Origin: Alphaproteobacteria bacterium
GTDB lineage: Bacteria > Pseudomonadota > Alphaproteobacteria > CAAHEQ01 > UBA3637
NCBI GenBank assembly: GCA_015062385.1
Contig: SUUT01000001.1
Coordinates: 38,619-102,618, forward strand
Length of the DNA: 64,000 bases
Direction: 5' to 3'
Position 1 is the stretch's first letter, and the number at the start of each line of letters is the position of its first letter. The position numbers and the translations under genes were made by a program. Positions 1 through 10,359 of this stretch are shown one piece after another. Below the pieces are notes generated by a model. That model was not told where the DNA came from, did no database searches, and was given only the letters and a program-made list of their open reading frames with translations.

Positions 1-744
1 CACAATAGCAATATCTTTATTCGTTAAGGCATTCATCAAACTGGATTTTCCTACATTCGGCACACCGATAAGGGCAATCTGAAATCCTTCCCGCAAACGT
101 TGACCTCGCTCGTTATCATCCAAATGTGCCAATATTTCTACCTGTAATGCACGTATATCCTGTTCAATTTGAGCTTCTTTTTCGGGAGGAATATCTTCTT
201 CCGGAAAATCAATAAATGCTTCCAAATACGCCATATGATGTACCAATAACTTCCGCCATCGTTCATACAAGGATCCTAATTGCCCCTCTGTTTGTGCCAA
301 AGCCTGTTTGCGTTGCTGTTCCGTTTGTGCATCAATCAAATCCATAATCCCTTCAGCCGCCGTTAAGTCCATTTTACCATAAACAACAGCCCGACGGGAA
401 AACTCTCCACGTTCGGCTGGACGCACTTCTGAAAATTCACTCAATCGCTTAAAAACCGCATCTATGACACTCGGTCCACCATGTACCTGAAATTCAACAA
501 CATCTTCACCCGTAAAACTATTCGGTCCTTTAAAATACAATACAAGGGCATGGTCAATGACTTCTCCCATCTTATCCATTAACGGTTTAAAATAAGCATA
601 TCGGGGAGTCGGATTTTCAATATGGGTAATTTCCTGAATTAAATATGTCACTCTACTGCCCGACACACGAATAACGGCTACTCCGCCTTTTCCTGCTCCG
701 GATGATAATGCATAAATAGTATCTGTTAAACAATATGAATACAT
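1..744 (-). CDS. mnmE: tRNA modification GTPase MnmE (TrmE), N-terminal about 248 aa. The gene continues beyond the window start.
   Basis: Reverse-strand translation from ATG at 744 gives MYSYCLTDTIYALSSGAGKGGVAVIRVSGS...IALIGVPNVGKSSLMNALTNKDIAIV. This is an MnmE N-domain plus a G1 P-loop. It is not in the ORF track because it is truncated at the window edge. The position next to yidC is typical. Confidence 0.8.
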   Translation of the reverse strand, partial: MYSYCLTDTIYALSSGAGKGGVAVIRVSGSRVTYLIQEITHIENPTPRYAYFKPLMDKMGEVIDHALVLYFKGPNSFTGEDVVEFQVHGGPSVIDAVFKRLSEFSEVRPAERGEFSRRAVVYGKMDLTAAEGIMDLIDAQTEQQRKQALAQTEGQLGSLYERWRKLLVHHMAYLEAFIDFPEEDIPPEKEAQIEQDIRALQVEILAHLDDNERGQRLREGFQIALIGVPNVGKSSLMNALTNKDIAIV

Positions 745-840
745 TTTTATTCCTCTGCTTTGTATCGATTTAAACCTAATCGACACATCAATTTAAAAAT
801 CTGTCAATACACTCTTACTTTTTTTAATTCAGCCAACCGA

Positions 841-1497
841 TTAAACGCCCTTTAAAACTTTAACAAATTGAGCCCGCACTTCTTCAATGCCCTTATTCTT
901 TTCCGAACTCGTCAATAAAACCTCCGGATAACAGGCAACGTGCTTTTGTGCTGTTTCTTTTGTTTGAGCCCAAACGGCTTCGGCTTGTTTCAACGGAATC
1001 TTATCGGCTTTTGTCAAAACAATTTGATAACTGACGGCAGCAGAATCCAACATTTTCATAATTTTTTCATCCACCGTTTTAATACCATGACGAGAATCAA
1101 TCAATAAAAATACCCGAGCCAACTGCACTCTGCCCCGTAAATAATCGTGAATCAAACGAGTCCAACTCTGAACCGTTTTTTCAGGGGCTGCCGCATAACC
1201 ATACCCCGGCAAATCAACAATAAAAAAATCCGGCGTTTCAAAATAATTCAATGATTGTGTTCGCCCTGGGGTATTAGATGCCCGAGCCAATCCTTTAACG
1301 CCTGTCACGGCATTAATCAAACTGGATTTTCCAACATTTGAACGACCGGCAAAGGCAAATTCCTTTTTATCTCCAATCGGTAATTGTTCAACACTGTTTA
1401 CACTGAGCCGATAAACGGGTTTTTCGGTAAAAACGGCATTTCCTTCTTTTAACAGGCTTTTGGTTGTATCTTCCGGTGTTAAATGAATAATCTCCAT
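841..1497 (-). CDS. engB: Ribosome biogenesis GTP-binding protein YihA/EngB
   Basis: 218 aa with P-loop GRSNVGKSSLINAV and a DLPGYGYA G3 region. It lies immediately downstream of yidC, as in many bacteria. Confidence 0.85.
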   Translation of the reverse strand: MEIIHLTPEDTTKSLLKEGNAVFTEKPVYRLSVNSVEQLPIGDKKEFAFAGRSNVGKSSLINAVTGVKGLARASNTPGRTQSLNYFETPDFFIVDLPGYGYAAAPEKTVQSWTRLIHDYLRGRVQLARVFLLIDSRHGIKTVDEKIMKMLDSAAVSYQIVLTKADKIPLKQAEAVWAQTKETAQKHVACYPEVLLTSSEKNKGIEEVRAQFVKVLKGV

Positions 1498-3231
1498 TTA
1501 CTTAACCCCCACTTTATGCATAATGTATTTTTGTTGAAAAATGGATAAAATGTTGCTCCACGTCCAGTATAAAATCAAACCGGCAGCAAATCCACCCAAC
1601 ATAAACGTAAATAGAACAGGCATCCATTTTAAAACCTTTGCCTGAACAGGATCCGGCGGGGTCGGATTAAACTTTTGCTGAATAACCATTGTCAACCCCA
1701 TCAGAATCGGCAAAACACCCAAATTCAAAAAGGCAGGAATCGGCCAATCCAAATAACCGAATGCCGTAAAGACAGAACTCGGATCAGGAACAGATAAATC
1801 TTCAATCCATCCGTAAAATGGTGCCTGACGCATATTAATGGAAACAGATAACACCTTATACAAGGCATAAAAGACCGGAATTTGTAAAAATATCGGTAAA
1901 CAACCGGATGCCGGAGATACTTTTTCCCGTTTATACAAATTCATCATTTCAATCTGTAACCGAGACGGATCGTTTTTAAAACGTGTTTTTAATTCTGTCA
2001 AACGTGGTTGCAATTTACGCATTTTAGCCATACTTTCATATGATTTTGTTGCAACAGGTAATAGCAGTAAGCGAATGAGCGTTGCAAAAACCAAAATGGC
2101 AATTCCCATATTTCCCAACAATCCGTATAACCAGTTTAAAATGTGTAAAAACGGTTTTGTTAGGAAATAAAACCATCCAAAATCAATGGTTAAATCAAAT
2201 TTCGGAATATTATATTGTTTTTCGTAACGGGTTAACAAATCAACTGTTTTGGCTCCTGCAAAAACACGACTGGTATGCGTATAACTTTCACCGGCCGGAA
2301 TTGTTATATAAACACCTGAAAATTCTGCTTTATAAACATCATTCAGCCCTTTTTCAAATCTGATTTTTCCCCATTCTTTACCATCTAAAATCAAAGCTGT
2401 TTGCCAATATTTATCCGTTATACCAAACCAACCGCCTTTTGTTTTTTCTTCAAATACTTCATCAGCAATATCATCATATTTTTCTTCAATCAGTTTATCT
2501 TTTAAAACGGCAATAAACCCTTCATGAACTGTGGAAACAGCAGGAACATCCGATAAAGTCCGCACAATTTCACCACCAAAATAAACCTGAATCGGTTTAT
2601 CGGTTAAATTGGTTAATGTATCAGTTGTTGAAACCATATAATCATTATCAACCGTTACTTGACGGGTTAATTTCAAATCATCCGTTTGCCCTGTGGCAAT
2701 AATTGTTTTATTTGGTTGCAACATTAAATCTTTATCCGTTGCTATCGGAACAGGAATAACAGCATCCGGACTTTTCCAGCCCATTTGCGTGTAATATGTA
2801 TCTGTTAACAATGAAACTGCCGGACTATTATCCTGTGTCGTTTGTTTGTATTTTAACAAATCAACCTGAGATAATTTCCCTTTTTGTATATTATAACTAC
2901 CTTTAATTGCTTCGTTTTGAATTTGAATAATCTGATCGGGAATAATTGGTTTTAAAACAGACGTTTCCGTTTGAATGCCTTGTTCTGAATTAATCCCTTT
3001 TGAATCAACAGATGCTAAATCAATTACTCCGGAATCACTCGTTTTGGCAATGCCGATTGTTTGTTCGGCAACCGTTTGATCCGACCCTGTTAACAATGTT
3101 TCCGTTTGTGGTTTCGGAAACAAGATATTTGTCCCATACAAAACACCTGTCACTAATAAGGCAGCAATAATTAAATTTTTTCTTTCTTGTTGTTCTTCCT
3201 GCAATTTCATTTTATTTCCTTTTACAAACAA
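1498..3231 (-). CDS. yidC: Membrane protein insertase YidC
   Basis: 577 aa with an N-terminal TM, a large periplasmic domain and a C-terminal 5-TM core (GCLPIFLQIPVFYALYKVL). Synteny with yidD, rnpA and rpmH supports the call. Confidence 0.9.
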   Translation of the reverse strand: MFVKGNKMKLQEEQQERKNLIIAALLVTGVLYGTNILFPKPQTETLLTGSDQTVAEQTIGIAKTSDSGVIDLASVDSKGINSEQGIQTETSVLKPIIPDQIIQIQNEAIKGSYNIQKGKLSQVDLLKYKQTTQDNSPAVSLLTDTYYTQMGWKSPDAVIPVPIATDKDLMLQPNKTIIATGQTDDLKLTRQVTVDNDYMVSTTDTLTNLTDKPIQVYFGGEIVRTLSDVPAVSTVHEGFIAVLKDKLIEEKYDDIADEVFEEKTKGGWFGITDKYWQTALILDGKEWGKIRFEKGLNDVYKAEFSGVYITIPAGESYTHTSRVFAGAKTVDLLTRYEKQYNIPKFDLTIDFGWFYFLTKPFLHILNWLYGLLGNMGIAILVFATLIRLLLLPVATKSYESMAKMRKLQPRLTELKTRFKNDPSRLQIEMMNLYKREKVSPASGCLPIFLQIPVFYALYKVLSVSINMRQAPFYGWIEDLSVPDPSSVFTAFGYLDWPIPAFLNLGVLPILMGLTMVIQQKFNPTPPDPVQAKVLKWMPVLFTFMLGGFAAGLILYWTWSNILSIFQQKYIMHKVGVK

Positions 3232-3266
3232 AAAACATTTTTATACAATAAAAAAACTCGAAATAA

Positions 3267-3560
3267 TCAATCTTTTGGCGGAACGGGATCATATCCCGAC
3301 TTTCCCCACGGATGACACTTCAAAATACGTTTGAGCGACAGCATAGCACCTTTTATAACACCATGCAACAAAAAAGCTTCTTTTGCATATGCTGAACACG
3401 TTGGCGTAAAACGACAGCAATTCGGTTTGAGCGGTGATAAAATTTTTTGATAAATCCAAATACAGCATAAAAACACCTGCAAACATATCTGCGATAAGAC
3501 TTGTTTTATCCGTTGAAACAACATTTTATTCCCCGATTTCCGAATTGGTTGTTGATACAT
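3267..3560 (-). CDS. yidD: Membrane protein insertion efficiency factor YidD. The true start is probably internal, at Met13.
   Basis: Motifs [14 protein letters not shown]...[17 protein letters not shown]. It overlaps the rnpA 3' end, as is usual. Confidence 0.75.
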
Positions 3561-4497
3561 AAAAAAACTTATCGTTTATTTTTGTTTTTTCACTTGTCTC
3601 CTCGGATAAGGTAGAAGATTGGTTGTTTTGCTCCGCCGGTGTTATCCGTTTACCAATCAAAGTGGAAACACTGTCTTTCTCGTTTTTCCCAACCTCCTCG
3701 GATAAGGTAGAAGATTGGTTGTTTTGCTCCGCCGGTATTATCCGTTTACCAATCAAAGTGGAAACACTGTCTTTCTCGTTTTTCCCAACCTCCTCGGATA
3801 AGGTAGAAGATTGGTTGTTTTGCTCCACCGGTGTTATCCGTTTACCAATCAAAGCGGAAGAACCGTCTTTCTCGTTTTTCCCAACCTCCTCGGATAAAGT
3901 AGAAGATTGGTTGTTTTGCTCCGCCGGTATTATCCGTTTACCAATCAAAGCGGAAGAACCGTCTTTCCCATTTTTCCCGATCTCCTCGAATAAGGTAGAA
4001 GATTGGTTGTTTTGCTCCGCCGATATTATCCGTTTACCAATCAAAGTGGAAACACTGTCTTTCTCGTTTTTCCCAACCTCCTCGGATAAGGTAGAAGATG
4101 CAACCGAATCCGACTTCTCTTTACCGGATAACCGCTGTTCATAATCTGCTTGAACGGCACGCAACAAATACAGTGCATCTTTTTTCAACGCCTCAAAAGA
4201 ACGGGTTGCCGTATTAAAACGACCGATAAAAACATAATTATACCCTATGGGGGCTTCGGGAGCAAAAAACAACCGAACAACTTCTCTCATTCTGCGTCTA
4301 ACCTTGTTGCGAACAACAGCCGACCCCAGTTTTTTTGTTGTAGTAAAACCAACCTGCAAAATATCTTTTTGATTTTCAATTACCTGACAAATCAGTCCAG
4401 ATGAAACATATTTTCGTCCGTTATTAGAGGCCAATAAAAAATATTTACGCTTGCGAATACGAGACGGCAATGTAAACTTTTTTTCACTCATAAACAA
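3526..4497 (-). CDS. rnpA: RNase P protein component RnpA with an in-frame C-terminal extension of about 200 aa. The extension is built from 32-aa tandem repeats.
   Basis: The N-terminal 120 aa match RnpA ([17 protein letters not shown]...[18 protein letters not shown]). The ORF then continues in-frame through about 5.2 copies of [32 protein letters not shown]. Confidence 0.75.
3599..4100. repeat. 96-bp tandem direct repeat, about 5.2 copies (starts at 3599, 3695, 3791, 3887, 3983, with a partial copy at 4079). It lies inside the rnpA 3' coding region.
   Basis: Direct reading: the unit tcctcggataaggtagaagattggttgttttgctccgccggtgttatccgtttaccaatcaaagtggaaacactgtctttctcgtttttcccaacc recurs with a few substitutions. 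Confidence 0.9.
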
Positions 4498-4699
4498 ATC
4501 CTTATCTCCACCGGTTTAACAAACCAATTCAACAAAAATCAAAAGAACCAAACCATTAACTGTATCCGTTGATTTGATAAACACAAGGGCACTATTGTTA
4601 ACATTTTATCACTCATCCCCTCATTCAACTCACCGAATAAAAAAAGGAACGAATACACTGACACGTTCCTTTTTGCAATAGGCTAATCTCTTTAAGCAA

Positions 4700-4834
4700 T
4701 TAAGCACTTAAAACTTTACGACCTTTACGACGGCGTGCATTTAAAACTTTACGACCGCCAACTGTGGCCATTCTTGCCCGAAAACCATGACGACGTGTCC
4801 GAACAAGTTTACTTGGTTGATATGTACGTTTCAT
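4700..4834 (-). CDS. rpmH: 50S ribosomal protein L34
   Basis: Manual reverse translation gives [44 protein letters not shown] (44 aa). It is shorter than the ORF-track cutoff. Confidence 0.9.
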
Positions 4835-4982
4835 TTTCATTCTCCATCAAATAACAATTAAAAAAATGTTAAGGCTTTTATACCTTCTTTTTTTATGAAA
4901 GTCAAGTATTATTTTGTAATTTCTATAAAAAAATAAAACCAAAACCAAAATTATTTTGTTATTTAAGGTTTTTAACAATTTT

Positions 4983-5007
4983 GCGGACGGATAAAAATCC
5001 GCCCGCC
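4983..5007 (-). terminator. Candidate intrinsic terminator downstream of the 5023..5262 gene
   Basis: gcggacggat-aaaa-atccgcccgc forms a 10-bp stem with one mismatch. A T-rich run follows on the minus strand. Confidence 0.35.
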
Positions 5008-5022
5008 GTTATATTTTCATAC

Positions 5023-5262
5023 TTATTTTTTAAATAAATTACAGTGACAATGTCCCATTTCGGCAATTTCTTTTTCGTGTTCACCACATGGGCAGAAACC
5101 TCGGGATACATCACACGGACAATGACCATCACAAGCATTTAAACACCGATTAATAATCCGATCAGCAAACGGTGTTAATTGATACCCTTTTGATTTTGCA
5201 TATAATTCCAACGCATGTTTAAAATGATTGTTATTATTTAAAACGCTTTCGTCTTTTTCCAT
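5023..5262 (-). CDS. Small Cys-rich protein resembling the ferredoxin-thioredoxin reductase catalytic subunit
   Basis: 79 aa. CPCDVSRGFCPCGEHEKEIAEMGHCHCNLF matches the CPC...CPC...CHC arrangement of FTR-like proteins. Confidence 0.5.
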   Translation of the reverse strand: MEKDESVLNNNNHFKHALELYAKSKGYQLTPFADRIINRCLNACDGHCPCDVSRGFCPCGEHEKEIAEMGHCHCNLFKK

Positions 5263-5278
5263 TTTATTCTCCTTGTTG

Positions 5279-5890
5279 TTATATTAAAAACTGCAAGCCA
5301 TACAAAACAACGGATGCACATAAACCGGCCATAACATCATCCGTCATCACACCAAACGCATTTTGCACTTTTTTGTCAAAATAAGAAACCGGACCCATTT
5401 TAACAATATCAAAAAAGCGAAAAAATGCAAAACCGATTACATAATGATACCACATTATTCCCAAACCGGCAACCCATAAAAAAGTTAATGTCTGCCCGAC
5501 CGTTTCATCAATCACGACAAAACCCGGATCGTGCTTTTCTTGTGTTTTCAACACAATGTGTGTTGCCCACCAACCGATAAAAAACACAACAACCGAAACC
5601 GTCAAAATTCCCAACCATCCATACGGGGCCACAACATAAACAAGTGGCAAAGAACAAAGCGAACCGACCGTTCCGGGAGCTTTCGGGGATAATCCACTTC
5701 CGAACCATGTTGCAAAAATATATGCGATTTTTACCAAAAGCGTTTCTTTTTCTTCCGTCATTTCGGGCTTAATCCGGAGTCTCGCTTTTTCCAAAGACGT
5801 TTCTTTTTCTTCCGTCACTTCGGGCTTGGCCCGAAGCATCGTTTCTTCCAAAGGTAGTTCTTTTTTTATCTGTTGCATCCGTTTCATCAA
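5279..5890 (-). CDS. pgpA: Phosphatidylglycerophosphatase A with an N-terminal repeat extension of about 55 aa
   Basis: GSGLSPKAPGTVGSLCSLPL and TDDVMAG motifs. The N-terminus has two 17-aa repeats (LRAKPEVTEEKETSL / LRIKPEMTEEKETLL), encoded by a 51-bp DNA repeat at about 5720-5830. Confidence 0.75.
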   Translation of the reverse strand: MMKRMQQIKKELPLEETMLRAKPEVTEEKETSLEKARLRIKPEMTEEKETLLVKIAYIFATWFGSGLSPKAPGTVGSLCSLPLVYVVAPYGWLGILTVSVVVFFIGWWATHIVLKTQEKHDPGFVVIDETVGQTLTFLWVAGLGIMWYHYVIGFAFFRFFDIVKMGPVSYFDKKVQNAFGVMTDDVMAGLCASVVLYGLQFLI

Positions 5891-5899
5891 ACACTCTCT

Positions 5900-7342
5900 T
5901 TACGATTTTTTTGTCGGCATCGGAGCCCGAAACTTACTTTTGTTTTTTTCTTGAGAATCAACCGTTACTTCCGGAAGAATTTCTTTCTTCTCCTCTTTTT
6001 CCATCTCCGTTCCGGACATCATCATACTGAAATTAGCTTTTATCTGTTCCAATTCCGCCGAATAACCGACATCTTGTTGATCTTCATCAATGTCATCATC
6101 ATCCATATCAACATCATCATCCAATGGTTCCTCATCATCAAAATCATCATCTGTCGTATCATCATCTTCCTCAATAAATTCTTCATCATCTTCAACAAAA
6201 TCTTCTTCACTATCAAAATCTGACATTGATGCATCTGCATTGACTTCGGAGTCAAATGAATCTTCTGAAACGTCTGCCGATGCAGCTTGTGTTTCAGCTT
6301 GTGTGGGTTGTGCTGATTGATTCACTTGTGCTTGTTGAGTACCTTGTTCCGATTGTGCCGGCAATGCGGATTGTACCTGTTTTTGTTTTAACGGCACTTT
6401 TTGAACCGGATGCGGGGCCGGATCTGTTTCACCGGGTTTCAAATCAAAATAAGCACTTAAAAACGAAGCCAAATCCGGCAATTCGGATGATGGTTCCGCA
6501 TTATTATATCCGATTAAAAAGATGCCTTTTGATTTAAAATATTCAACAGCCTGTTTAGCATTTAAAATACGCCCATCCATAATCAAAATAGCCGATAATA
6601 TTTCCGAATTCGGTTCCGAACGAGCTAATGAAGCCGATGCCCCCAACAAATCTTTTGCCAAACGTTCCATCACGCCCCCTTCGGAATACCAACCACTTTG
6701 GGTAACATCATCCGTAAATTCAACCGACCAATTCACATTCTTTTTGTTCACAATTTCAATCAAGACGGCTCGTGCATCTGTTGAAATAGCCAACGGTACA
6801 CGATTTCCCTCCAATAAGATATGTTGAAATATTTCTACTTTATACTTTTTGGCAAGCGTTGCAACCATTCGTATCATCTGAACCAAATTGGTATGACTTT
6901 TTGCCCCTGGAGCCACAGTTTCCACCTGATTAGGTAATTTAGGAGCAACATACCGACTGGCTTGAACGGTAGAAGGCATTTTGCGAGGCATATGATAAAT
7001 CGGTTTATTTTCATTCAATTCAAATACTTTTCTTTTAATTTTCCGCCGACGAGGAGCCGGTTTAAATTTTTTCCAATTAACCCGATACAGAAAAAACCAC
7101 CCGATAAACCAAAACGGAATCCACAACAACATAACCAACAATAACCGTAATTCCGTTAACGTATTAACCCGCCATTTATAATTGATAAAATCATTGTATT
7201 TTTCTGCCCAAGCCGTGTGGGAGAGCAAATCAAAATCAACCCAATATCCGACAAACGGAACAATCAAATAAAAGTAAAACGGTGTCCAAAAAAGACCTGT
7301 CAATACCAATTTCAAAAAACTTATTTTTTTATTTTTTGCCAT
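5900..7342 (-). CDS. Hypothetical membrane protein (2 N-terminal TM helices) with a Q-rich linker and a 60-aa poly-Asp/Glu C-terminal tail
   Basis: 480-aa ORF. The TM segments are followed by a basic RRRKIKRK stretch. The tail is DDDVDMDDDDIDEDQQD...FDDEEPLDDD, encoded at about 6080-6290. Confidence 0.55.
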   Translation of the reverse strand: MAKNKKISFLKLVLTGLFWTPFYFYLIVPFVGYWVDFDLLSHTAWAEKYNDFINYKWRVNTLTELRLLLVMLLWIPFWFIGWFFLYRVNWKKFKPAPRRRKIKRKVFELNENKPIYHMPRKMPSTVQASRYVAPKLPNQVETVAPGAKSHTNLVQMIRMVATLAKKYKVEIFQHILLEGNRVPLAISTDARAVLIEIVNKKNVNWSVEFTDDVTQSGWYSEGGVMERLAKDLLGASASLARSEPNSEILSAILIMDGRILNAKQAVEYFKSKGIFLIGYNNAEPSSELPDLASFLSAYFDLKPGETDPAPHPVQKVPLKQKQVQSALPAQSEQGTQQAQVNQSAQPTQAETQAASADVSEDSFDSEVNADASMSDFDSEEDFVEDDEEFIEEDDDTTDDDFDDEEPLDDDVDMDDDDIDEDQQDVGYSAELEQIKANFSMMMSGTEMEKEEKKEILPEVTVDSQEKNKSKFRAPMPTKKS

Positions 7343-7367
7343 AAATCTCCCCTTTTAAATACAGCAT

Positions 7368-9659
7368 TTACATTGCCCGTCCGGTTGTACGTGTCGGTTT
7401 TGGGGCTTGATATGTCGGTGTTTGGCCTGAACGTCCCATTGCCAACTGACGTTGTCGTTGCCGATTTGCACTTGCTGCTTCATCATTAGCTTTTTTCTTA
7501 CGGTCAACATCACGTGCCTGTGCATCCAATTCCTCTTTTCGCCGATTATCTACCGGCATACGTGTTCCGTCCGGCATTGTCACAACCGGATTTTTAACCG
7601 TTCCCGAAATTCTAACCTCTGCCAAATCATCCATTTGAACAGATGCCAATGCCTCGGCTTTTTGACGTTCATGTTCATTATCCCGCACATTTTTCGGTGA
7701 TTGTACACCATTTGATCCATGTTGCACGGCATCGGCTTTTGTTTCCCGAACATTATTTGCATTTGATACCTGTTTCGGAGCCTTTACGCCGGTCGATGAT
7801 TGTACAATATTTGGGTTTTGAACATCGGTTGAAGCCTGCAAATCGGCAGTCGGTTGCACACCGCTCGACTGTACATTATTCGGACTTGGCATACCGTTTG
7901 GAACCTGCTCTTTTGTTGAAGACTGCAAACCGGCAGTCGGTTGCACATTGTTCGACTGTACATTATTCGGACTTGATATACCATTTGGTGCTTGCCCTTT
8001 TGTCGAAGCCTGCAAATCGGCAACAGTTTGCTCCAACTCTTGAATCTTTGCCTGTTGAACAGCAACTTGTTCATCCGGAGACATCAATGAAACATTTTCC
8101 ATTTCCTTTGAAGCCGATACGATTTGTTTCATCTCGTCATATGATTGTTTAATACCCGTCATTTCGTAAACATAATTTTTAAATTCGGGCAAATGTGCAT
8201 ATGTTGCTAAATATTGACCGTATTTCTTTCGCTGTGATGATGACATTTTATCAAAATCAACACTTCCATCCGATTTTGTCGGCAATCTTTTTGCAAACTC
8301 TCTTTTCTCCAACAATGCTTTTTCGTATTTGGTATATGGACCTTTTTCCGGAATAATGGCATAATTCGGGTCTTGCAAAATCCATTTTTGTCCGTCACGA
8401 GCCAATTTAGTCGATAAATCCAATTTGCTCAAACCACGATTTCTTAAATTATCGGCAATAAATTCACCCCGTTTTTCAACGGCTTTTTTGGCATCTTCTT
8501 TTTGACTTAAACGTTTTTGTTTTAAATATTCTTTTAAAGAATCCAACGGAACCATTATACCGGCAACAAGAATATCCAATGCAAAATCGGCCATATCTTT
8601 TTCGGATCCGATTTTATCAATATGTTTGGATACCCCTTGCTTATATACCGTTTCCCAATCGGTTTTGCGTTTATCGGCACTACCCAATTTAACACCATCC
8701 ACATAACCGTATTGACCTTTATCTGCAAAAGAATCATTTAATTTACGAATATCTTCTTCTGCTTTATCCGGCTCATTTGTACCAACCTTAAAGGCATCAT
8801 GCAAATCACGCATTTCTTTGGCTTCCTGCGACATCTCAAACGTATTACCGGAACGAATTGTTTCATTTTCCGAATGAGGCGTGCCTGTAAAATCAACTGT
8901 TTTTGTTTCTCCATCCGCCGTATTATCCGTCATCGGTTGCGGGGCAAACCCCGTTTGCATTTCCACATCCGGCGAAAAATTAACATCTGCCGTATTTCCC
9001 GTATCCGTCATATTAATCGTCGTGTCCGGCTGAGACAAATCCAAATGTTCCGTATACAACGGGGTATCCGGTTTAAATTCCACCGTTCCCGTTTCTAAAG
9101 TGCCGGTTTGCGGTTCAACCGCATCCCGATAATCCCGCATACCGGACTTTGTCTCAAACATACCATGTTGTTCATATGTATCCATACGGGCTTCATTTTC
9201 TTGCACAACAGAATTGACCTGTTCTGTTTCTGCCTGCGGTAACGGCCCTTCCTGAAAAGCCTGTGCATAATTTGTCCTCAAATAAGAAACACCGGCTTCT
9301 AATTGCGGTTTTTGTTCCATAAACTGTTCTTCTTCGGCAGAAAGAGCCTGTTCTTGTTTTTCTTTTTTATCTTGCAGATAATGATATGCTTGAACAGCCT
9401 GAACCGTCTGACGAACAAACGTATCCCTTTGAACGGTTGCCTGTACTTGTTGAAACACTTCAGGCTTTGTTTGAACGGACACCTGATTCATCGCCTGTTG
9501 AAGACGCCCCATATCGCCTGTTTGAGCAGCTACCCGTATTTCTCTAATCGGTTGAAGGACCGGCGTTCCGGAAAAAAACTCTTCCATTTCGGCCATTTCG
9601 CCATCCGTTGCCGTTAACAATTTTGCAATTTGTTCTTCACTCATTAAAGATTCAGCCAT
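7368..9659 (-). CDS. Large hypothetical protein (763 aa). It is low-complexity and Q/N/S/T-rich, and contains 31-aa repeats.
   Basis: Long ORF with no recognisable catalytic motif. About 2.4 copies of a 93-bp repeat at about 7838-8040 encode LQASTKGQAPNGISSPNNVQS-like units. Confidence 0.55.
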   Translation of the reverse strand: MAESLMSEEQIAKLLTATDGEMAEMEEFFSGTPVLQPIREIRVAAQTGDMGRLQQAMNQVSVQTKPEVFQQVQATVQRDTFVRQTVQAVQAYHYLQDKKEKQEQALSAEEEQFMEQKPQLEAGVSYLRTNYAQAFQEGPLPQAETEQVNSVVQENEARMDTYEQHGMFETKSGMRDYRDAVEPQTGTLETGTVEFKPDTPLYTEHLDLSQPDTTINMTDTGNTADVNFSPDVEMQTGFAPQPMTDNTADGETKTVDFTGTPHSENETIRSGNTFEMSQEAKEMRDLHDAFKVGTNEPDKAEEDIRKLNDSFADKGQYGYVDGVKLGSADKRKTDWETVYKQGVSKHIDKIGSEKDMADFALDILVAGIMVPLDSLKEYLKQKRLSQKEDAKKAVEKRGEFIADNLRNRGLSKLDLSTKLARDGQKWILQDPNYAIIPEKGPYTKYEKALLEKREFAKRLPTKSDGSVDFDKMSSSQRKKYGQYLATYAHLPEFKNYVYEMTGIKQSYDEMKQIVSASKEMENVSLMSPDEQVAVQQAKIQELEQTVADLQASTKGQAPNGISSPNNVQSNNVQPTAGLQSSTKEQVPNGMPSPNNVQSSGVQPTADLQASTDVQNPNIVQSSTGVKAPKQVSNANNVRETKADAVQHGSNGVQSPKNVRDNEHERQKAEALASVQMDDLAEVRISGTVKNPVVTMPDGTRMPVDNRRKEELDAQARDVDRKKKANDEAASANRQRQRQLAMGRSGQTPTYQAPKPTRTTGRAM

Positions 9660-9723
9660 ATTTCCCTCGCTTTCAATACGTTGTTTTGCACATTATATCA
9701 ATACTTGCATTAATTGTCAAACG

Positions 9724-10359
9724 CTATATTTTCAACGCTTTTAAGAATTTTGCGATTTTAGCATTTTCTTCTATGGCCTCATTCGGTGTTAAAACCATGT
9801 TCCCATTCATATCAGTTGTAATAATCGGAGAAAAATATGCCGGATTGGTAATCAATGTTTCATACGCTTTTTTAGCATCCTTCCGATACATTGTAAAATA
9901 AGAATGCATCAACTTATACCCATCCACCCGAAAATGCTGTTCCATAATCTTGTCGCCAAACGCTTTAACCAACTCTTTACGCCTGTTTTCTTCCTGTCGT
10001 ATTTCATTGAGCACACGGGTTGTTTCCTTTAATAATTCAATATTCCGATTATAAATCGATTCGGCCTGAGATTTCAATTTATATTCCAAATAATCCAAAA
10101 TAACATCCCGCCAAAAAGGCTGATCCGTATAATTATGTTGCACAATCTGAACAACATCTTTAACCTCGGCCGTATTCACATCTGTCAACCCACATAAATA
10201 AGAAACAACGGCACTCGTTTCTTTTTCCACCAATTCAACCGGAAAATTTTGTGGTGTATATTGTGTAATTTCAACAGTTAAAGCCGGTGCTGCCGTTAGA
10301 ACAGCCCGCTGTTCATACAACTTTTTATACAACACATAAAGCATATCTTTTGCTGCCAT
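9724..10359 (-). CDS. Hypothetical protein (211 aa)
   Basis: Clean ORF in an intergenic-sized gap. There are no recognisable motifs. Confidence 0.45.
   Translation of the reverse strand: MAAKDMLYVLYKKLYEQRAVLTAAPALTVEITQYTPQNFPVELVEKETSAVVSYLCGLTDVNTAEVKDVVQIVQHNYTDQPFWRDVILDYLEYKLKSQAESIYNRNIELLKETTRVLNEIRQEENRRKELVKAFGDKIMEQHFRVDGYKLMHSYFTMYRKDAKKAYETLITNPAYFSPIITTDMNGNMVLTPNEAIEENAKIAKFLKALKI

Follow-up and report, generated by a model that had tools for sequence, protein, structure and literature searches.

An in-frame 96-bp tandem repeat in the C-terminal tail of RnpA from an uncultured ruminant-gut alphaproteobacterium

Few essential bacterial proteins are as small and as constant in length as RnpA, the protein component of ribonuclease P (RNase P). 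Coding minisatellites are usually described from proteins that lie at the surface, are secreted or interact with a host. Here we analyze a 64,000-nt stretch of DNA (referred to throughout as the window; contig SUUT01000001.1, positions 38,619 to 102,618 of the forward strand) from an uncultured ruminant-gut alphaproteobacterium, in which rnpA encodes a protein of 321 aa with five in-frame 96-bp tandem units in its C-terminal tail. All positions given below are those of the window.

Known RnpA proteins have a mass of ~14 kDa (PMC4919922), and the solved chains, including those of B. subtilis (1A6F) and T. maritima (1NZ0, 3Q1Q), comprise 113-119 aa. The window protein shares with this family (PF00825/TIGR00188) the core profile, the RNR motif and the operon context, but carries ~196 additional C-terminal residues without any match. 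Judged from its sequence, it is a genuine member of the RnpA family in which a single family norm is broken, namely the size of about 110-130 aa. The closest described counterparts of the repeat itself are the intragenic variable-number tandem repeats (VNTRs) of Legionella pneumophila (PMC2639597), H. pylori cagY (PMC2194252) and M. tuberculosis (PMC12817950). As far as these reports are drawn on here, the rnpA array resembles them in being built of head-to-tail units that are multiples of 3 in length, remain in frame and vary among strains in number and order; it differs in the host gene, which in this case encodes a cytoplasmic essential RNA-processing subunit. The array displays the attributes of a coding minisatellite, that is, direct repeats within the coding sequence, a unit length that is a multiple of 3 and an assembled unit number that varies among strains (in short-read assemblies, the 0-unit allele being especially uncertain). 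Finally, the junction between rnpA and the downstream gene yidD can be compared with that of E. coli. In both cases the rnpA stop codon is located at the yidD start or past it, the arrangement in the window and its sister lineages being a stop codon, one base and ATG; however, the tail places ~590 nt of coding sequence between the RnpA fold and the junction here, and E. coli has none.

We consider it probable, at roughly 0.68, that the gene encodes a genuine RnpA with a lineage-specific, weakly constrained and probably disordered tail, that an in-frame 96-bp minisatellite has made this tail longer, and that the tail is tolerated, its frame being held by the junction with yidD. The features of the locus are as follows.

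4700..4840, minus strand: rpmH, encoding ribosomal protein L34 (PF00468, E 3e-23), at the head of the operon.
3526..4491, minus strand: rnpA coding sequence, 321 aa followed by TAA (3526-3528).
4117..4491, minus strand: RnpA core, residues 1-125, with the RNR motif (PF00825, E 9e-18; TIGR00188 above its cut-off).
4087..4116, minus strand: pre-repeat linker, residues 126-135, whose terminal SSTL equals the end of the repeat unit.
3607..4086, minus strand: five in-frame tandem units of 96 bp (32 aa), residues 136-295.
3529..3606, minus strand: post-repeat end piece, residues 296-321 (26 aa), common to all alleles and recognizable in the sister lineages.
3529..3534, minus strand: Shine-Dalgarno-like GGGGAA for yidD, within the final two rnpA codons.
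3267..3524, minus strand: yidD, 85 aa from the conserved ATG at 3524 (PF01809, E 7e-29).
1498..3231, minus strand: yidC (PF02096 and PF14849); gene callers start it at ATG 3210, which gives 570 aa.
3623..4144, plus strand: antisense open reading frame (ORF) of 173 aa across the repeats, regarded as a by-product and not as a gene.

The catalytic-support core is, by all sequence comparisons made here, untouched by the repeat expansion. The matches to PF00825 (64.7 bits, cut-off 22.3) and TIGR00188 (49.9 bits, cut-off 38.35) both span residues 11-115 only, and residues 3-112 match RnpA chains in the PDB, including the RNR motif, which aligns with AVVRNRIKRYIRQ of solved RnpA. A first AlphaFold2 model, built on a 15-row alignment, gave no information, as even the core remained below a predicted local distance difference test (pLDDT) score of 60. 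In a rerun with more diverse rows, the predicted fold of the core reached pLDDT 75-96 and had the canonical topology, with helix 10-24, strands 26-29, 33-39 and 46-51, helix 58-76, strand 84-90 and helix 99-121.

Past the family profiles, which end at residue 115, the reading frame continues without a stop through an extension of ~196-200 aa. An earlier note on this DNA, made from the letters alone, had described such an in-frame extension of about 200 aa, unusual for RnpA and built of 5.2 units of 32 aa, and we find the same. Tandem Repeats Finder reports a period of 96 bp with 5.2 copies at 3598-4099, 93% matches and 0 indels; the count exceeds five because the array flanks share SSTL and SEE with the unit, and unit 4 is exactly the peptide that had been quoted. 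The units keep the RnpA frame and differ mutually by 1-11 nt, with only 1 nt between units 4 and 5.

No protein outside the cluster to which the window protein belongs was matched when the tail alone was searched against 5.8 billion proteins, and no Pfam family scored above cut-off in the tail. A metagenome scan with a conserved 19-mer of the unit likewise produced no further arrays, the 8 single matches being apparently due to chance. In the AlphaFold2 model, residues 127-321 have pLDDT 31-41 and no secondary structure. S, E, K and N are abundant in the tail, which has a mean hydropathy of -0.91 and a net charge of -7 (core, +16) and is probably disordered according to this model. It lacks the marks of a structured repeat-protein domain, having neither a Pfam family nor homologues nor a predicted fold, the prediction being weak for an orphan sequence.

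All copy numbers reported here derive from short-read metagenome assemblies, so the exact values are uncertain. The array is nevertheless genuine and not an assembly artefact, because the identical 321-aa protein (P0004; NCBI MBE6454856.1, annotated 'MAG: Alphaproteobacteria bacterium', where MAG stands for metagenome-assembled genome) occurs on 17 contigs of 20 kb to >200 kb, and because the rnpA DNA of three independent Joint Genome Institute (JGI) metagenome assemblies equals that of the window at all 966 positions. Expansion or collapse of a repeat by short-read assemblers, which might have created the array or its variation in copy number and which had been named beforehand as an outcome that would undo the observation, is very unlikely. 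In its favor, every source is a metagenome assembly, window units 4 and 5 are nearly identical, no allele has more than five units, possibly an assembly limit, and one allele (P0008) differs from the window allele only in lacking unit 4 or unit 5, so that some length differences may be due to collapse. In addition, the two contigs of the 0-unit allele (L005 and L006) are short and look chimeric, joining the linker of the haplotype of another contig, L007 (KSDSLASSTL), to the end piece that the window haplotype carries (SEETSEK…INDK); they may be chimeras or collapsed products of mixed-strain assembly, or else true recombinants. However, the 17 contigs come from different samples and assemblers, the sequence and order of the units vary among alleles beyond what collapse could produce, and a tail is independently present in the sister lineages. 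The one-unit alleles can be argued to be real because they lie on longer contigs (13.8 kb and 22.7 kb) from two samples, in which they are identical, and carry private linker substitutions (KSDSIASATL).

Within the species, the array varies in the number, sequence and order of its units. The cluster formed at 90% identity holds 24 sequences, and the allele comparison covers the 15 that are listed; these have 161, 193, 257, 289 or 321 aa, corresponding to 0, 1, 3, 4 or 5 assembled units on an identical core. The suspicion that copy number would differ among strains is thereby borne out for the assembled sequences. The nine contigs with other alleles for which DNA was fetched represent the same species, because their flanks are 98-99.8% identical to the window. 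The alleles are mosaics, with 18 peptide unit types in the 15 listed alleles and 18 distinct DNA units among the fetched loci; the units combine a handful of polymorphic sites, and the five-unit state exists in five different arrangements. Unequal exchange and gene conversion within a minisatellite would be expected to leave such a pattern. All 15 listed alleles are in frame and share the same C-terminal end piece. Since the unit has 96 bp, or 32 codons, and every allele is in frame, the locus is not a frame-shifting contingency locus, and neither a frame shift nor a promoter change by repeat number, either of which would mark phase variation, was found. The units of one array differ by 6.5-9.7% in DNA, compared to 0-6 of the 405 core positions (~1%) between strains. 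Units thus diverge more than strains do in the core, which dates the array to before the strain diversity sampled here.

Comparison of rnpA in related genomes, which the earlier note had put forward as a check, places the origin of the repeat in a pre-existing tail. Only two clusters are close to that of the window: P0002 (193 aa, found on five Logan contigs, with a closely similar copy in the MAG RGIG7750 from water-buffalo rectum) and P0003 (195 aa). Both have the same core (93% identity) followed by an unrepeated tail of 75-77 residues. A scan of GTDB genomes with RnpA patterns recovered only the one sister-lineage MAG, RGIG7750, and not the species of the window. The sister tails align end to end with the one-unit allele, recognizably in P0002 (…LSDSVGKNGKD…GQNNQSATLSEGGGEKNKINDKFFCVSTTNPEIEE) and with far greater divergence in P0003. 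The alignments show that the ancestor of the three gut alphaproteobacterial lineages carried a tail of ~75 aa with one copy of the unit, and that a 32-codon segment of this tail was tandemly duplicated in the window species; because the sister lineages have one unit-equivalent, the array grew from a tail that was already present.

The next relatives have 56-60% core identity, 120-164 aa and short unrelated polar tails, and such tails of variable length (10-45 aa) are common among the nearest RnpA relatives. We surveyed protein length among the best 150 of 6010 RnpA representatives from 1.84 billion proteins. Nearly all have 97-167 aa, and the few longer ones are mostly extended at the N-terminus; a C-terminal tail of >60 aa is present in 3 of these best 150, namely P0002, which represents the clade, P0130 (299 aa) and P0155 (215 aa). 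Like the window protein, P0130 and P0155 combine an RnpA core with a long polar tail lacking a recognizable domain, but their tails are non-repetitive and unrelated to it in sequence. These two proteins show that long RnpA tails appear independently and rarely.

As a separate observation, window positions 1-9738 compared with two contigs (L001 and L015) display a mosaic of identity to the P0002 sister lineage: 95.9-96.1% over 1-3705, which covers the last unit, yidD, yidC and the downstream region, and 84-89% upstream of rnpA. This suggests recombination between lineages, with a putative breakpoint in or near the rnpA tail.

The position at which the tail ends is set against the next gene. In all three lineages, GGGGAA, GAGGAA or GGAGAA is followed by TAA or TAG, one base and ATG, and because this junction pattern is common to them, we take ATG 3524, one base past the rnpA stop, as the conserved start of yidD. 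The longest yidD ORF (3267..3560, 97 aa), the choice of some gene callers, shares 35 nt with rnpA; its start codon, ATG 3560, reads GTG in one of the sister lineages and is missing from the other. Since the array ends at 3598, the repeats do not reach yidD, contrary to the overlap that had been reported for them. Nor would an overlap between the two genes be noteworthy in itself: rnpA and yidD overlap by 4 and 8 nt in outgroups with RnpA proteins of 130 and 160 aa and by 37 nt in E. coli K-12. An untranslated spacer between the two genes was found in none of the relatives examined. This geometry suggests that rnpA and yidD are translationally coupled. Translation of rnpA would then have to reach the yidD start, and the frame would stay open mainly for that reason; because the stop and start abut or overlap and the ribosome-binding site of yidD lies inside the last rnpA codons, any DNA between the RnpA fold and yidD would become translated as a tail of RnpA. 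Units might be gained, lost and shuffled by slipped-strand mispairing, unequal recombination or gene conversion, and the resulting tail would be a tolerated, solvent-exposed appendage of the RNase P holoenzyme with little or no specific function.

The strength of selection differs between the two parts of the protein. The ratio of nonsynonymous to synonymous substitution rates (dN/dS) between lineages is 0.05-0.06 in the core and 0.40-0.65 in the tail, which thus appears to be weakly constrained and fast-evolving. Among the 18 distinct units, the corresponding ratio for polymorphisms (pN/pS) has a value of 0.43 when read in the RnpA frame; the other five frames give 0.51-0.85, so that the comparison discriminates little. 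Of the six frames, that of RnpA alone lacks stops in every unit. It had been proposed that the repeat is kept translatable, given that both its RnpA frame and a plus-strand frame are open. Both frames are indeed open in the window; the proposed maintenance does not follow, because a stop-free unit with a length that is a multiple of 3 stays open when duplicated, and the plus-strand frame is broken in other alleles. The absence of stops among the 24 variable sites of the repeat is no proof either, its probability by chance being ~0.36. By contrast with the repeats themselves, the comparison between lineages offers the better evidence that the open RnpA frame is under selection: tails of 75-77 codons are open in all three lineages and end at the same place, and only 0.2-0.4% of composition-matched shuffles are stop-free.

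That the plus-strand ORF 3623..4144 is a real antisense gene, for the sake of which the repeats are maintained, we consider extremely unlikely. The ORF is open over 173 aa, within 191 stop-free codons, in the window allele, but the frame is interrupted in every other multi-unit allele (at most 83 stop-free codons) and in the sister lineages (at most 48), and 5 of the 18 distinct units contain a stop in it. Every Pfam match of the product, a hydrophobic, low-complexity mirror of the sense frame, falls below cut-off. The ORF was accordingly rejected as a gene; it is a by-product, because the duplicated unit happens to lack stops in that frame and the other alleles are broken.

The array could also act as RNA or DNA, that is, as a structured mRNA element or protein-binding array regulating yidD and yidC, given its location immediately 5' of these genes and in the same transcript orientation. 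We regard this as highly improbable. The predicted RNA folding of the array is no better than that of shuffled sequences (z = -1.27; 12 of 100 shuffles were as good), promoter-like matches inside the units are at the level of chance (6 seen versus 5.2 expected) and no terminators were detected in the array. An Rfam scan of the whole window yielded no family at gathering score, whether a tRNA, rRNA, riboswitch or RNase P RNA (rnpB). Moreover, alleles of 0-5 units coexist, and the RnpA frame alone is stop-free in all units.

A functional tail is a further alternative. In this case, the repeats would form a multivalent disordered module that alters the behavior of the RNase P holoenzyme, with copy number tuning the effect; the conceivable effects include partner binding, solubility, localization, partitioning into condensates and, through the slightly acidic tail, affinity for P RNA or pre-tRNA. 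The values of pN/pS in the units and dN/dS in the tail, both below 1, are consistent with it, as are the near-invariance of the C-terminal half of the unit over the 18 unit types, the presence of the array before strain divergence, the five arrangements of the five-unit state and the opposite charges of tail and core. However, the tail has no homologues outside its own cluster and no predicted fold, and the sister lineages have one degenerate unit in tails that diverge almost freely. One-unit alleles, and possibly 0-unit ones, also exist within the species (contigs of 13-23 kb); homogeneous unit halves can stem from gene conversion; and pN/pS in the real frame is barely below that in the wrong frames. 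On balance, we consider a functional tail unlikely. A stronger version, in which the tail is a copy-number-tunable disordered module on an essential ribozyme subunit that also sets YidD and YidC levels through ribosome traffic, with unit number serving as an adaptive dial, seems to us more doubtful still.

We therefore return to a tolerated tail lengthened by a minisatellite, against which several observations have to be weighed. The dN/dS of the tail and pN/pS of the units point to some constraint on the peptide, and the second half of the unit (17 aa) is nearly invariant over all unit types. The age and persistence of the array fit tolerance, but they fit a function as well. For an orphan sequence with 16 alignment rows, low pLDDT argues only weakly for disorder, and translational coupling is read from the geometry of the junction only. 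With regard to copy number, all values come from short-read assemblies, in which collapse is possible because adjacent units can differ by a single base, and the 0-unit contigs are short (1.8-2.2 kb) and mix haplotypes. Conversely, we count in favor of a tolerated minisatellite that other genes in the window, such as pgpA, also carry lineage-specific in-frame repeats.

The gene context is the canonical rpmH-rnpA-yidD-yidC-(GTPase)-mnmE, with rnpA directly 3' of rpmH and 5' of yidD and yidC, and the public annotation of the proteins of this cluster is 'ribonuclease P protein component'. The longest rnpA ORF (3526..4497, minus strand) encodes 323 aa from a TTG codon and adds two residues without a counterpart in public homologues. 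As the latter open with MSEKK, we place the start at ATG 4491, 7 nt upstream of which lies AAGGA. An exact look-up of the 323-aa protein with the TTG start returned no public record, because public calls begin at the ATG.

Upstream of rnpA, 25-60 nt 3' of the rpmH stop, the minus strand contains a hairpin, AAGGAACG-N12-CGTTCCTT, followed by a T-run (window ~4637-4676). It looks like an intrinsic terminator or attenuator, and was overlooked by the terminator scan because its loop has 12 nt. Between pgpA and rpmH lies a cysteine-rich ORF of 79 aa (…CLNACDGHCPCDVSRGFCPCGEHEKEIAEMGHCHCNLF; 5023..5262, minus strand), which has no Pfam family on record; its position and length are conserved throughout the strains and in the two sister lineages.

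Several other proteins encoded in the window contain repeats. A PgpA-like protein (5279..5890, minus strand; PF04608 in related loci), encoded ~1 kb from rnpA, has an N-terminal in-frame repeat of 57 bp x 2.1 at 5737-5853; it has 202 aa here and 164 aa in both sister lineages, the difference of 38 aa corresponding to 2 x 19. The neighboring 480-aa predicted membrane protein (5900..7342, minus strand) is extremely acidic and D/E-rich in its C-terminal region, where short repeats of 15-24 bp occur; its length is 470 aa in strain L007 and 475 or 483 aa in the sister lineages, and no Pfam family is on record for it. A protein of 763 aa without a Pfam match (7368..9659, minus strand) contains an in-frame repeat of 87 bp x 2.2 at 7828-8022 (…QASTKGQAPNGISSPNNVQSNNVQPTAGL…) and varies in length over strains and lineages (763, 792, 718 and 734 aa). 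At the far end of the window, a cysteine-rich protein of 729 aa (58761..60950, minus strand) with a pilin-like hydrophobic N-terminal segment (…GRSMVEMLGILAVIGVLSVGGI…) carries a repeat of 462 bp x 2.2 at 59029-60035, with 154-aa units that are 88% identical. The ORF adjoining its gene (61021..62643) encodes acidic, Q-rich low complexity.

The library searched contained no report of rnpA with tandem repeats or of RnpA extended at its C-terminus, which is not proof of novelty. The extension is unusual for RnpA, yet falls within a well-known class of variation and is probably of low consequence. A tail that is simply tolerated would make the finding a curiosity and not new biology; if the tail were tunable, it could alter holoenzyme assembly, partitioning into RNA-processing bodies or substrate selectivity. 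For practical purposes, strains of this ruminant-gut lineage can be marked by the locus, which is also a caution for annotation and assembly pipelines. More generally, a stop codon anchored to the start of the next gene can convert any inserted DNA into a protein tail. The natural alleles, of ~190 to 321 aa, indicate that the C-terminus of RnpA tolerates very large appendages, which is useful for tagging and engineering of RNase P, and they offer a natural allelic series on the effects of disordered tails in a ribozyme holoenzyme.

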